Source: Eledone cirrhosa (Eukaryota). From it: 64,000 nucleotides of DNA. Positions within the stretch are counted from its first letter, which is position 1. The number at the start of each line of letters is the position of its first letter. Shown piece by piece: positions 12,035 to 56,329 of this stretch. The stretch spans positions 30,070,001-30,134,000 of the forward strand of contig OZ024754.1 in assembly GCA_964016885.1 (NCBI GenBank), in the 5' to 3' direction. The notes beneath the pieces are model-generated. The model saw nothing but the letters and a program-made list of their open reading frames with translations, ran no database searches and was not told the origin of the DNA. Position numbers and translations under genes: made by a program.

Positions 12035-12472
12035 ATATGGAGATAGGTCGGTCTCATCAACCCCGGTGTTTGAATGATACTTTGTTTTATTGAACTCCAG
12101 AAGTTGAACCCCAAAAGTTGACATCAGCGGGATTTGAAAGGAAAATGTAAAGAGCCATAACTATAAGCCGCAAAACATGTTGTCCGACGCTCTACCGATA
12201 CTGCCATTCCACTGCCCAGAAACAACGTAATATTGATATATTTATTGCACAATTGGCGTATTTACGCAAATGAAGTGAGCGTGGCCTTGCGAGAGAGAGA
12301 GTGAAGGCTATTAATTTCGCTTACTTGATTCATCATATATACTTTTATTTGCAGCTTTGTTTTGTTTTTGTTTTTTGTTTTTGTTTTTACACAAGCAGAC
12401 TTCTATCATCTGACTACATGTAATACAATATATAATATAGAGATAGAAATTGAAACTGAGATTAATCCGACA

Positions 12473-12475
<3 letters not shown>

Positions 12476-14370: not shown

Positions 14371-14465
14371 ATAGGAAAAGTATGACCCCGACGGCAGAGC
14401 TCAAGTCGTTTCGACGGCCGTTTCGTCGAAACGGCTTGAGCTCTGCCGTCGGGGTCATACTTTTT

Positions 14466-14470
<5 letters not shown>
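14371..14470. mobile_element. fold-back copy of HHR family Z in (TA)n
   Basis: 100-bp palindrome ATAGGAAAAGTATGACCCCGACGGC...GCCGTCGGGGTCATACTTTTTCCTAT. Confidence 0.85.
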
Positions 14471-14698: not shown

Positions 14699-14700
<2 letters not shown>

Positions 14701-14821
14701 ACGAAGGAAATGTGGTAAGGAACCAGGTGGACCATAACGCACCAAAGTACTCAATACTTGGGGTAGTAGAGTGGGTAATAGGAACCAGTAAGACCCCATA
14801 CTTTGGGGTCTTACTGGTTCC

Positions 14822-14824
<3 letters not shown>
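14699..14824 (-). mobile_element. family Z 3' fragment with terminal fold-back
   Basis: Matches 17242-17340; hairpin TAGGAACCAGTAAGACCCC-ATACTTT-GGGGTCTTACTGGTTCCTA; (TA)n on both sides. Confidence 0.85.
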
Positions 14825-16251: not shown

Positions 16252-16895
16252 CTATTTTCGTGTAAGTTTCCAGGCATAGCGAGGACTCTGGAAACTTACA
16301 TGTGTGTGTTGTATATTTATTGGTGTGAGTTATTTGTTTATGTTTTAGGTGTTATGTTATATTCCATTCTGCTTTGAAAGAGAGAATCACTGTCAACAAT
16401 TAAATGCGAGTCTTAGGCAAGTTCCAATATCCCACCCACGCCTCTTTAAGTTTTTCACTTACTCCACCAAATGAAATCGATAAAACATTACCGTATCAGT
16501 TGATACTGGCAGAAAGGACAATGCCACCATATATATATACATATATATATCAATAGTAATATTTCATTCTGAGTTCAAGTCTCGCAGAAGAGAATATTCT
16601 TCGAATTTCATATTAACTAGGATTGGCTTATATCAAGAGTTCAGAAACTGGCATCTGAGGATTCATAGATAGAGGTGGGGGTCTGTAAATATGGTGCACA
16701 CTAACTTCGATTCTACTTGACTTTTTAATAAATTTGAATGTATGTATATATATATATATATATATACATATATATACATATATATATATATATATTTGAG
16801 TATATGTTGGTTTTTTACCGACACCTGAGTAAGCAGATTGGAGCACTCGACGAAGTACGTAGAAGCCAAATTTTAAATATTTGACTTAATTATTT

Positions 16896-16944
<49 letters not shown>

Positions 16945-16948
<4 letters not shown>

Positions 16949-17337
16949 AAAAAGTATGACCCCGACGGCAGAGCTCAAGCCGTTTCGACGGCTATTTCTG
17001 GACTAACTTAGAATTTTTAGCCTGGTGAATAAATAGCCGAACTTGTCAAGGGGGTACTTCCTTATATGGGAAGATTGTAGTTGTCAAGAAGATTGGTTAA
17101 AATTTTAACCAATCTTCTTGACAACTACAATCTTCCCATATAAGGAAGTACCTCCTTGACAAGTTCGGCTATTTATTCACCAGGCTAAACATTCTAAGTT
17201 AGTCCAGAAATAGCCGTCGAAACGGCTTGAGATCTGCCGTCGTGGTCATACTTTTTCCTATTTCCCACTCTACTACCCTAAGTATTGAGTCATCGGGTGC
17301 GCTATGGTCCATCTGGTTCCTTACCACAATTCCTTTG

Positions 17338-17340
<3 letters not shown>
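16945..17340. mobile_element. longest family Z copy: about 315-bp spacerless palindrome plus an 80-bp tail, in (TA)n
   Basis: Arms 16945-17102 and 17103-17260 are nearly perfect complements. Confidence 0.9.
16959..17055 (-). ncRNA. hammerhead ribozyme with U3-A8 variant core and GUC site (family Z)
   Basis: CCCC-TTGACAA-G..CGGCTATTT/AAATAGCCG..C-GAAA-CGGC(ttgagctct)GCCG-TC-GGGG; mirror copy at 17150-17246 (+) has a damaged stem I. Confidence 0.75.
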
Positions 17341-17377
<37 letters not shown>

Positions 17378-17651
17378 TGAGATAGTAAACAAAAAACAAA
17401 AAAAAACAACGTGGAAGCGAAGAGGCAGTACAAAATGTTAATATTAGTTTCACGCTTGTATATATGTATATATATATATATATATATAAAACAGTAAAGA
17501 GAAACGAACACAGATATATAACTATATGTGTTCAAATCAGAAGGTACAGAAACCGCCAGGGTGAAGAAAATACTGACTAAAATTGTATGGTTCACAGAAC
17601 TCAATTAAAAGGATAAATCGAGATATATAAACCTGGTATGATAACTATCAA

Positions 17652-17730
17652 ATATCCAGACAGCTTACGAGTAGAACTGTTTCGCAATTCAGTAAACAGA
17701 TTAACTGGTCCGATGCTTTTCAATGGCTAC
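17652..17730 (-). ncRNA. hammerhead ribozyme with U3-A8 variant core and GUC site
   Basis: GTAGCCA-TTGAAAA-GCATCGG..CTGAATTGC-GAAA-CAGTT..AGCTG-TC-TGGATAT. Confidence 0.65.
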
Positions 17731-18023
17731 TTCACAACCAGTATACCCCCCCCCCCACTACGCACATGTGTTAATAGAGAAAGCACATAGTTATCGCCTG
17801 CCAGGCGATCGAATAGAAGAGTAAGGTTACCAGAAAAAATAGCAGCCACACCATCTGATATATTAAAAGCTCAACCAAAGCATAGGAGTTCAATTTATCC
17901 AAAATATATGTTGAGTTAAAAACTCACAATAATAATTATAATCAAATTAGCTCAAGGAAAAATAATTTCAAAGTCTAATTTGAACGCATATAGTTATATA
18001 TCTGTGTTCGTCTCTCTTTACTG

Positions 18024-18096
<73 letters not shown>

Positions 18097-18125
18097 GTAT
18101 ATATATATAGCACCCCTTATTTTTC

Positions 18126-18186
<61 letters not shown>

Positions 18187-18215
18187 GTATATATATATAG
18201 CACCCCTTATTTTTC

Positions 18216-18290
<75 letters not shown>

Positions 18291-18488
18291 GTATATATAT
18301 ATATAGCACCCCTTATTTTTCAATTATGACTGATAGCACCCCTTATTTTTCAATTATTTTTCAATGTTTATTTTTCAATGTTTATTCCTCAATATTTTTT
18401 ATATTTTTTATCTTTTATTATTTTTTATTCTTTATTTCTTCAATGTCTTGGATTTGTTATTGCTTGTGTGATATGTAATCAACCTTTA

Positions 18489-18534
18489 TGCTCTGATGAG
18501 TCCCACTTATAGTGCGGATGAAACAATGTTAGCA
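18489..18534 (+). ncRNA. minimal type I hammerhead ribozyme
   Basis: TGCT-CTGATGA-GTCCCACT/AGTGCGGAT-GAAA-CAATG-TT-AGCA, about 40 nt upstream of (TA)n. Confidence 0.8.
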
Positions 18535-18574
18535 AGTAAATATATGCATATGCCATAGGCGTTCTTTGTTATTG

Positions 18575-18884
<310 letters not shown>

Positions 18885-21571: not shown

Positions 21572-21642
21572 TGTTTTATCTGATGAAAACACAAATATTA
21601 TTGCATGATGATTTTTGTTTTTGAAATGCGCATAATAAAATA
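21572..21642 (+). ncRNA. minimal type I hammerhead ribozyme
   Basis: TGTTTTAT-CTGATGA-AAACACAAA..TTTTGTTTTT-GAAA-TGCGCA-TA-ATAAAATA; palindromic stem III. Confidence 0.75.
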
Positions 21643-40497: not shown

Positions 40498-40606
<109 letters not shown>

Positions 40607-40611
40607 AAAGA

Positions 40612-40720
40612 ATCGAAGAATCGCGACCCAACGGCTGAACTTTTGCCGTTCAACAGCTAGTTCCATAGCTGTTGAAACAGCAAGAGTTCGACCATGAGAT
40701 CGTCTCCGTATATTGATTGT
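40612..40720. mobile_element. diverged family Z-like fold-back beside (TA)n
   Basis: GACCCAACGGCTGAACTTTTGCCGTTCAACAGCTA..TAGCTGTTGAAACAGCAAGAGTTC; retains the GAAA-CGGC/GCCG-TT-GGGTC pattern. Confidence 0.55.
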
Positions 40721-53102: not shown

Positions 53103-53107
<5 letters not shown>

Positions 53108-53306
53108 AACGAGTAGGACCCCGACGGCTGAGCTCAAGCCGTTTCGACGGCTGATTCTGGACTAAATTTAGTCCAGAATTAGCCGTCGAAACGGCTTGAG
53201 CTCAGCCGTCGGGGTCCTACTCGTTCCTATTACCCACTCTACTACCCTAAGTATTGAGTACTTTGGTGCGTTATGGTCCACCTGGTTCCTTACCACATTT
53301 CTCCCG

Positions 53307-53310
<4 letters not shown>
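53103..53310. mobile_element. family Z fold-back plus tail in (TA)n
   Basis: Palindrome 53103-53231 centred on CTAAA|TTTAG. Confidence 0.88.
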
Positions 53311-55680: not shown

Positions 55681-55683
<3 letters not shown>

Positions 55684-55884
55684 CGAAGGATGTGGTAAGG
55701 AACTAGATGGACAATAACGCACCAGAGTACTCAATACTTAGGGTAGTAGAGTGGGTAATAGGAAAATGTTTGACCACGACGGCAGAGCTCAAGCCGTTTT
55801 GACGGCTATTTCTGGATTAAATAGAGTCCAGAAATAGCCGTCGAAACGGCTTGAACTCTGCCGTCGGGGTCAAACATTTTCCTA
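55681..55884. mobile_element. family Z tail plus fold-back in (TA)n
   Basis: Arms 55758-55817 and 55826-55884. Confidence 0.88.
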
Positions 55885-56048
55885 TATATATATATATGTG
55901 TGTGTGTATGAGTGTGTGTGTCTATATATATGTGTGTGTGTGTCTGTGTGTATATATATATATATATATATATTCCCCGTTTTTCTCATTTTTCTCCGTC
56001 CTTTCCTCTTCTCATCCATTATCTATCTATCTTCTATTTCTAACTCTA

Positions 56049-56084
56049 TCTTCTGATGAAGAACTAGTGACCGAAACGTTAAGA
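56049..56084 (+). ncRNA. minimal hammerhead ribozyme (mirror of 55145)
   Basis: Core intact; stem II degenerate. Confidence 0.5.
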
Positions 56085-56329
56085 CGCTTTTCCTGCTATT
56101 TCAAGCGTTAAACTAATAAACTTTTTCAAATAAAAAGTATGGACAAAGACAAGAGGAAGACGTACGAAACACAGTCTCAACTCATCAATCGATATGAGTG
56201 AGTGTGTGTGTTTGAGTATATGTGTGTGTGAGTGTGTGTGTGTGTATGCGCGTGTGTCTGTCTGTGTATGTGTATGGATGTGTGTTTGTATGTAGGTAGG
56301 TAGGTATTCATGTGTATGTGTATGTATAT

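Follow-up and report, generated by a model that had tools for sequence, protein, structure and literature searches.

The window analysed here is a 64,000-nucleotide stretch of the Eledone cirrhosa genome (GCA_964016885.1, contig OZ024754.1, positions 30,070,001 to 30,134,000), and it contains an inverted pair of related arms at 16945-17341, with (TA)n target tracts on the left (16901-16946) and on the right (17339-17370). The arms meet at AAATTT (17100-17105), a self-complementary sequence of the element itself. The minus-strand arm (16945-17105), here called the short-end (S) arm, is a 5'-truncated 3' end of a Penelope-like element (PLE). It ends TTCC|TAT, 17 nt past the predicted cleavage site, and is 98.8% identical to the full-length copy L031. 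Within it lies a complete type I hammerhead (16960-17053, minus strand) that reads CCCC-UUGACAA-G..56 nt..C-GAAA-CGGC-UUGAGCUCU-GCCG-UC|GGGG. Stem I is CCCC/GGGG, the core half UUGACAA occupies 17043-17049, stem II takes the 56 nt of 16987-17042, and GAAA is followed by a 5-bp stem III with a 9-nt loop that holds GAGCUC; the predicted cut falls between 16964 and 16963. The plus-strand, long-end (L) arm (17100-17341) ends GT|TAT, 97 nt past the cleavage site. It resembles the minus arm, but its hammerhead (17152-17245, plus strand) has a damaged stem I (CUCC/GUGG) and it carries an 80-nt extension. This tail (17259-17341, plus strand) spans the two start sites, TAT at 17259-17261 and TAT at 17339-17341, and includes a hairpin (17267-17290, plus strand) of 4 bp, a 2-nt 3' bulge, 4 bp and a 6-nt loop, 5 nt after the S start. 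A twin of this hairpin, after the L start, is found in full-length copies only.

A first-pass annotation of the window had described seven copies of a hammerhead with a UUGACAA core, a GUC, a 5-bp stem III and a long stem II. Each of these parts can be read at 16945 and all seven places are family members, but the whole core is found only at 16945, the UUGACAA half being absent from the other six. At 14371-14470 there is a short inverted pair of two S arms, and at 18629-18714 an L-end stub of 11 nt is followed by filler and then by an S arm on the plus strand; neither has the 5' core. The copy at 14699-14823, from a young subfamily, joins a minus-strand L arm to a plus-strand S arm through 7 filler bases, both arms stopping at GGGG, the predicted cleavage site. 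A decayed inverted pair at 40605-40700, again lacking the 5' core, belongs to the oldest subfamily, in which complete copies have CUGA[CU]GA. The pairs at 53104-53309 (S arm minus, L arm plus) and 55681-55885 (L arm minus, S arm plus) are truncated in stem II on both sides. A covariance model, proposed as a check, was built from 37 natural copies. It gave two full matches in the window (118.5 and 106.6 bits), which are the two arms of 16945 and were both in the model's own training alignment, and partial matches at 14371, 18629, 53103, 55681 and 40612; the 14699 copy is too short for the model and is 98% identical to a young unit. As to the (TA)n setting claimed for all copies, the copy at 40612 has it on one side only, and the palindromic form claimed for nearly all is not found at 18629. 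The two recurring 3' ends stand as described, 80 nt apart, and the suggestion that they form a PLE tail proved apt.

No hammerhead match at the gathering score was obtained with Rfam in the window, and none was among the 52 matches up to E=10 in 16800-18800. Weak matches to miRNA families, below their gathering scores, are caused by the palindrome and were rejected. A type I hammerhead that belongs to another family and has the canonical CUGAUGA, 4 bp in stem I and CAAUG in stem III lies at 18489-18537 (plus strand) and adjoins the 18629 copy on its left. Further CUGANGA hammerhead-like motifs occur at 21576 (plus), 21449 (minus) and 37323 (minus), the first two as an outward-facing inverted pair, as for PLE ends, and CUGAUGAAGAACUAGUGACCGAAACGUU at 56053-56085 (plus) is a minimal hammerhead-like core. 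The family model also gave a weak match at 12382-12475 (plus; 11.7 bits, E 0.31), which is probably due to chance.

Fold and identity of the element

The core elements of a hammerhead are all present with the U3-A8 variant (U4, G5, A6, N7 and A9; G12, A13 and A14; H17), and A15.1-U16.1 is found in all 37 rows of the alignment. Position 7 takes C, G, U and A, and U4, G5, A6, A9, GAAA, U16.1 and C17 are each at least 90% conserved. Three helices surround the core, with the open end at stem I; stems I, II and III are paired in 89, 90 and 94% of alignment cells (86% overall; 29-50% for slid partners), stem I with one internal loop and stem II with several. The CCCC/GGGG pairing of stem I, named earlier as something the consensus should show, is its majority state. 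Changes on both sides of a pair were seen at four stem II pairs and at 0 of the 9 pairs of stems I and III, a number not above that in shuffled alignments (4 vs 6.1). When the core was kept unpaired in the folding, the hammerhead structure came out a median of 1.1 kcal/mol above the minimum in 42 window-type and 15 young copies, 3.3-3.5 kcal/mol in C3.A8 copies and 10-12 kcal/mol in decayed older subfamilies. The GAGCUC palindrome of loop III would allow a dimer, for which -26.9 kcal/mol is predicted as against -13.0 for two monomers. The structure is a hammerhead in the pseudo-LTR (pLTR) of a PLE, and it is predicted to cleave itself, though slowly.

An exact search with the 20-mer of the family stem (stems II and III) gave 56,675 occurrences in the 3.0-Gb genome, counting both arms of a pair separately, and a reversed control gave 0. 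The advice to look for a PLE open reading frame (ORF) upstream of long copies was borne out, since longer copies continue upstream into one. The unit is ordered as hammerhead, 190 nt, an ORF with reverse transcriptase (RT) and GIY-YIG endonuclease (EN), 3' UTR and hammerhead. Copy L031 is full-length, with pLTR, ORF, 3' UTR and pLTR in a unit of 3,096 bp. In a tandem array, four units are complete; they measure 3,542-3,543 bp, and in each of them an intact ORF, 717 or 719 aa long, begins 190 nt after the cut site. This array (G000:C1:91472500-91496400; L099, L207 and L100) also has a partial unit and an inverted arm, its parts are more than 99.7% alike, and its long end lies in (TA)n. From its sequence it is a candidate active source copy. 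The units differ from one another at 2-7 sites, which fits rolling-circle copying, copying of a multimer or later duplication alike.

The predicted protein contains RLRWRT, SDKTG, YRDDG, CNCPDRSIC, VIY..AYIG, CNLCSEE, NKKDELVTACKH and CKH. The Hydra clade is a motif-defined group of PLEs with a C-terminal EN and (TA)n targets (Craig et al. 2021, PMC8557442, parts drawn on here). The motifs of that clade are all found: RW[KR], DKT, the CxCx5C linker, and CxxC and CxH around E and N, with no CCHH. The architecture, as read from the motifs, is one ORF with RT followed by a C-terminal GIY-YIG. By this motif set we place the element in the Hydra clade; published Hydra proteins look similar by eye. 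No Pfam match was obtained for the ORF; protein searches returned 2,163 relatives, the best with 53% identity over 77% of the query and most with about 40%, and 20 more in another search. Membership of Naiad, Neptune or Nematis was rejected because the EN is C-terminal (N-terminal in Naiad) and the linker is CxCx5C rather than CX2-5CxxC with CCHH. Two reported tendencies of Hydra elements, which stand outside the protein definition of the clade, are not shared: a canonical CUGANGA core and a length generally below 3 kb. The variant core is found here in all but the oldest subfamilies, and units measure 3,096 and 3,543 bp. Among eight loci of metagenome relatives, canonical CUGANGA hammerheads occur in four, that is, wherever one was found.

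What the available parts of Craig et al. (PMC8557442) describe for the clade is largely shared, namely a single ORF with RT and C-terminal GIY-YIG, the RW[KR], DKT, CxCx5C, CxxC and CxH motifs, (TA)n targets, a hammerhead in the pLTR, inverted 5'-truncated copies and a one-ended tail. The hammerheads themselves differ. All 25 Hydra rows of File S2 of that paper have CUGANGA, a stem II of 3-7 bp with a short loop, and a loop III of 1-3 nt, whereas the Eledone family has U3-A8, U3.G8 or C3.A8 in the core, a stem II of 54-56 nt and a loop III of 9 nt. Its tail of 80 nt compares with the 30-40 nt stated there for PLEs, in a unit of 3.1-3.5 kb.

Roughly nine in ten arms fall below 100 nt and are without the core (56,675 stem matches vs about 6,500 cores), as might be expected of a non-coding retrozyme or a MITE-like hairpin element that merely resembles a PLE end. 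That reading is hardly tenable, because the sequence runs into a coding unit of 3.1-3.5 kb and the truncation lengths form a continuum, and for the family as a whole it is refuted. A non-LTR retrozyme was likewise rejected, the tandem unit encoding an RT-EN protein. Other Hydra-type PLE families directly adjoin family copies at L010 (2-1435, minus), L023, L034 (2835-3446, minus) and L036 (8585-9634, plus), and several Hydra families thus use the same (TA)n sites.

The 3-8 pair across subfamilies

The first-pass annotation regarded U3-A8 as a compensated pair. In patterns matched against the genome, U3-A8 is the commonest state (5,244 matches). C3 with A or G at position 8 gave 631 matches, C3.A8 in 96 of 100 among the matches listed, and U3.G8 gave 69, all of them listed, with one subfamily supplying about 30 and an older one about 20. 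A pattern free at positions 3 and 8, with the stem II of the C3 subfamilies fixed, gave 1,298 matches; among the 100 listed, 86 were C3.A8 and 14 U3-A8, and none had G8. In one C3 subfamily 47 of 49 were C3.A8 (by eye, among the matches listed). The C3-G8 pattern gave 45 matches, of which 17 are whole cores (5 of the oldest subfamily, 5 of the one after it, and 7 that reverted singly within C3.A8 backgrounds); the remaining 28 match by chance, mostly where the pattern spans a palindrome.

Trees were built from endonuclease DNA (33 copies), from the ribozyme region after masking of positions 3 and 8 (71 of 127 copies) and from both combined. They point to one ladder, C-G > U.G > U-A (the window's subfamily) > C.A > U-A (youngest, with intact ORFs), whose root rests on two copies and the canonical cores of published Hydra elements, and the alignments are short. 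Monophyly of the U3-A8 copies was rejected (p-AU 9e-5) for a group that was named after earlier trees had been seen and that takes in a single C3 copy from the young clade. Insertion of one base may have given rise to U3. At L197 and at L204, one arm of the element copy has C at core position 3 and the other has U, either through later mutation or through copying from two RNAs.

The prevalence of U3-A8 and its return in the youngest lineage could mean that the 3-8 pair is truly selected for fast cleavage, U3-A8 being a true compensation and C3.A8 copies having moved in trans or used another register, with C3 alongside G7. Indeed G7 accompanies C3 in nearly all matches listed (at most 98 of 100), nearly all of which read CUGAGAA, and another register may be in use there. 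We nevertheless consider this account unlikely. The RNA that is copied itself carries the mismatch, so mobilisation in trans would leave the need to tolerate it; moreover, C3.A8 lasts through several successive branches, and the seven C3-G8 revertants are rare and unamplified. The family appears, from these sequence comparisons, to have kept jumping while its 3-8 pair was mismatched. The claim of compensation thus holds in so far as the pair is Watson-Crick in the window's and the youngest subfamilies, but C3.A8 and U3.G8 subfamilies were amplified too, and as far as the trees go U3-A8 is one state on a drifting path and not a fixed compensation.

Paired ends and junctions at the predicted cleavage site

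End offsets from the cut site peak at +17 (42 of 72, S) and +97 (50 of 76, L), each at a UAU that matches (TA)n, and a TA run follows 236 of 266 ends (126 of 142 S ends and 110 of 124 L ends), in keeping with the (TA)n insertion of Hydra elements. Of the sequencing runs listed as holding the sequence, none was of RNA. Contigs from three of these runs have loose TA ends at the same two positions; they may derive from the assembled sample and were not taken as independent evidence. Among 59 classifiable inverted pairs, chosen regardless of tail and with five further pairs excluded for a read-through or edge arm, 55 are LS, 3 SS and 1 LL (p=8e-13 against independence). In 21 long pairs the L arm is longer in 10 and the S arm in 7, with 4 equal, and clean junctions overlap by 0-6 nt. 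The arms of long pairs were thus truncated independently, which excludes a simple fold-back, and the S and L pairing, with either arm the longer, points to two priming events that were coupled.

Fold-back is a rival explanation for such palindromes. An L-primed cDNA would snap back and be copied to the short end, with resolution by the endonuclease, and in the parts of Craig et al. 2021 (PMC8557442) drawn on here the tail is put down to EN-mediated resolution. In short pairs the arms are of nearly equal length, to within 15 nt in 14 of 14, and junctions often fall at palindromes such as GAGCTC (15 of 50 among the matches listed), as fold-back would have it. The S arm, however, is the longer in those 7 of 21 long pairs, reaching 2,937 vs 975 nt, which an L-primed strand cannot yield, and an S-primed strand that folds back cannot yield the tail. 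We regard fold-back as quite improbable and prefer two coupled priming events.

Each start is followed by a hairpin of the same plan (4 bp, 2-nt bulge, 4 bp), at a distance of 5 nt from the S site and 3 nt from the L site. There are only two per unit, compared with 0.33 per shuffled unit. Subfamilies differ in them at a loop and a bulge position; no compensatory change was seen within the family, and the gap from UAU to hairpin is unequal (5 vs 3 nt). In the metagenome contig L208 the ORF is preceded by related GCUC..GAGCAC hairpins at a spacing of 61 nt, and similar ones occur in L208-L210. By eye, such hairpins are also found in published Hydra consensi, two in Hydra-1_Ajap and one each in Hydra-2_Ajap, Hydra-2_Amil and Hydra-1_Crog, the last with C-G in place of U-A; none was seen by eye in the ends of Hydra-1_Obim.

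The predicted cut site is crossed by about 97 of 100 arms listed, and about 3% stop at it, which suggests that the RNA is usually copied either uncut or after re-ligation. The arms mostly end 30-48 nt upstream of that site, in the 3' strand of stem II (L031 2464-2474). A pattern search restricted to the young U3-A8 subfamilies found 575 short inverted junctions genome-wide. In 25 of the 50 listed, both arms end at G1.1 or one base short of it (by eye). Of these 25, 7 are joined directly and 18 have 1-16 filler bases (a single A or T in 8), the first of which is never the next template base. One arm ends at the site in a further 10 of the 50, the remaining 15 have their joint within the loop III palindrome, and among the 50 matches listed there is no case in which both arms stop 2-9 nt past the site. 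Both arms end at the site far oftener than a per-arm rate of 3% predicts, which suggests that the two arms share one RNA. Window copy 14699 is one such junction. In a small local census of 30 arms chosen without a search, five scored 0-1, two of them one-base deletions and three real (L155 and both 14699 arms), and a scan of 808 kb found such junctions only at L155 and 14699. When an RT runs off the 5' end of its template, it typically adds untemplated bases. The cleavage-site junctions are likely, from their sequences, to be run-off copies of RNA that had been cut in vivo, and they make up roughly 2% of the insertions of the young subfamilies.

The hammerhead might instead be a catalytically dead relic that is kept for protein binding or structure, the stops at GGGG reflecting an RT stall at the three-way junction or a transcription start. 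The high rate of crossing is compatible with a relic, as are the C3.A8 subfamilies, which made about 1,100 whole-core arms (from the 86 of 100 listed and the 1,298 matches above) and gave rise to the youngest subfamilies, and the report, in the parts drawn on here, that cleavage is dispensable for Poseidon in vitro (PMC11167929). Such a relic is rather improbable, since the stop is at G1.1 itself and an RT stalled at stem III would be expected to incorporate the next base, seen in 0 of the 18 filler junctions, and since the core bases named above are conserved to at least 90% while position 7 takes all four. On balance the genomic evidence, which is indirect, favours cleavage at the predicted site.

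Proposed mechanism and relation to known systems

Our reading of the window locus, which we consider probable, is that two 5'-truncated 3' ends of a Hydra-type PLE stand back to back in a TA repeat, likely as a result of two coupled target-primed reverse transcriptions on RNA with a hammerhead for which slow cutting is predicted. The RT-EN protein, probably as a dimer, would bind the two similar hairpins and nick both strands of the (TA)n target. One cDNA would start at the UAU before each hairpin, giving inverted arms of which one is tailed, and the two cDNAs would stop and be joined by 0-6 nt of microhomology or by filler. The template would usually be uncut or re-ligated. On a cut template both enzymes would run off at G1.1 and leave dead-end stubs of 17 nt and 97 nt, as at 14699. 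Because a cut template would yield only stubs, a weak 3-8 pair (U.G, U-A or C.A) could be tolerated or even favoured, and a slow ribozyme would cost little. Cleavage and re-ligation would be needed only for a circular template made from copies such as L031, without downstream hairpins.

A more far-reaching account is tentative, and we would put it a little below an even chance. It holds that the hundreds of insertions ending at GUC|GGGG derive from RNA cut in vivo. Both RT starts lie just 3' of the cut, so cleavage would abort insertion and selection would have kept the ribozyme slow, the 3-8 pair walking C-G > U.G > U-A > C.A > U-A without loss of mobility. Both arms would come from one RNA by way of a dimer on the twin GCUC..GAGCAC hairpins, a start signal that would be Hydra-wide.

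Several parts of this picture have precedents. In Schistosoma mansoni, the Cercyon PLEs carry U3-A8 minimal hammerheads in the pLTR, with about 1,300 matches (Cervera and De la Pena 2014, PMC4209133, as far as the parts drawn on here go). The Eledone family shares with them U3-A8 in a PLE pLTR, G10.1-C11.1 and a palindromic loop 3 that allows dimers (here GAGCUC). Cercyon motifs have no stable stem III and are inactive as monomers, whereas the Eledone family has a 5-bp stem III and a predicted monomer fold; the available parts of the Cercyon account mention no U.G or C.A subfamilies. Covariation from C3-G8 to U3-A8 in nature was described by Perreault et al. 2011 (PMC3088659), who cite earlier work for the in vitro activity of such variants. 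The parts of that paper drawn on here give isolated examples and no lineage through wobble or mismatch states, and the Eledone family appears to be such a lineage.

The paired starts have a parallel in the Anolis element Poseidon PAc (Frangieh et al. 2024, PMC11167929), in which two internal RT starts bound the tail, cutting and extension take place on both strands of the target, a dimer is predicted and the template is mostly uncut RNA. The Poseidon starts are inside the ORF and not homologous to the target DNA, and no RNA ends at the cut site were reported there; in the Eledone family the starts are in the 5' UTR at UAU and used as an S and L pair, and insertions that stop at the predicted cut site form a class of their own.

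A U3-A8 hammerhead in a PLE is thus already published and is not new. Work by Przybilski and Hammann (2007), Nelson and Uhlenbeck (2008) and Lunse et al. (2017) may already report rates for U3.G8 and C3.A8, or larger PLE hammerheads. A search of openly available literature, in which most papers were judged from their listings, found no account of wobble or mismatch subfamilies, of insertions ending at a PLE hammerhead cut site, of coupled starts or of twin hairpins. As far as that search reaches, what goes beyond published work is the many copies that stop exactly where the cut is predicted, and which are likely to be fossils of cleavage in vivo, together with the amplified mismatch and wobble sister subfamilies and the pairing of S and L arms with a hairpin after each end.

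Hammerheads of PLEs have low rates in vitro, and in the one PLE that has been reconstituted cleavage of the Poseidon hammerhead was dispensable (PMC11167929, in the parts drawn on here). In this setting, the Eledone genome seems to record PLE hammerhead cleavage at single-base resolution, which bears on whether and why PLE ribozymes cut in vivo. Four natural 3-8 combinations in one scaffold would allow activity and transposition success to be compared variant by variant, and the strict pairing of S and L arms with twin hairpins offers a testable account of the one-sided PLE tail and the inverted pLTR.
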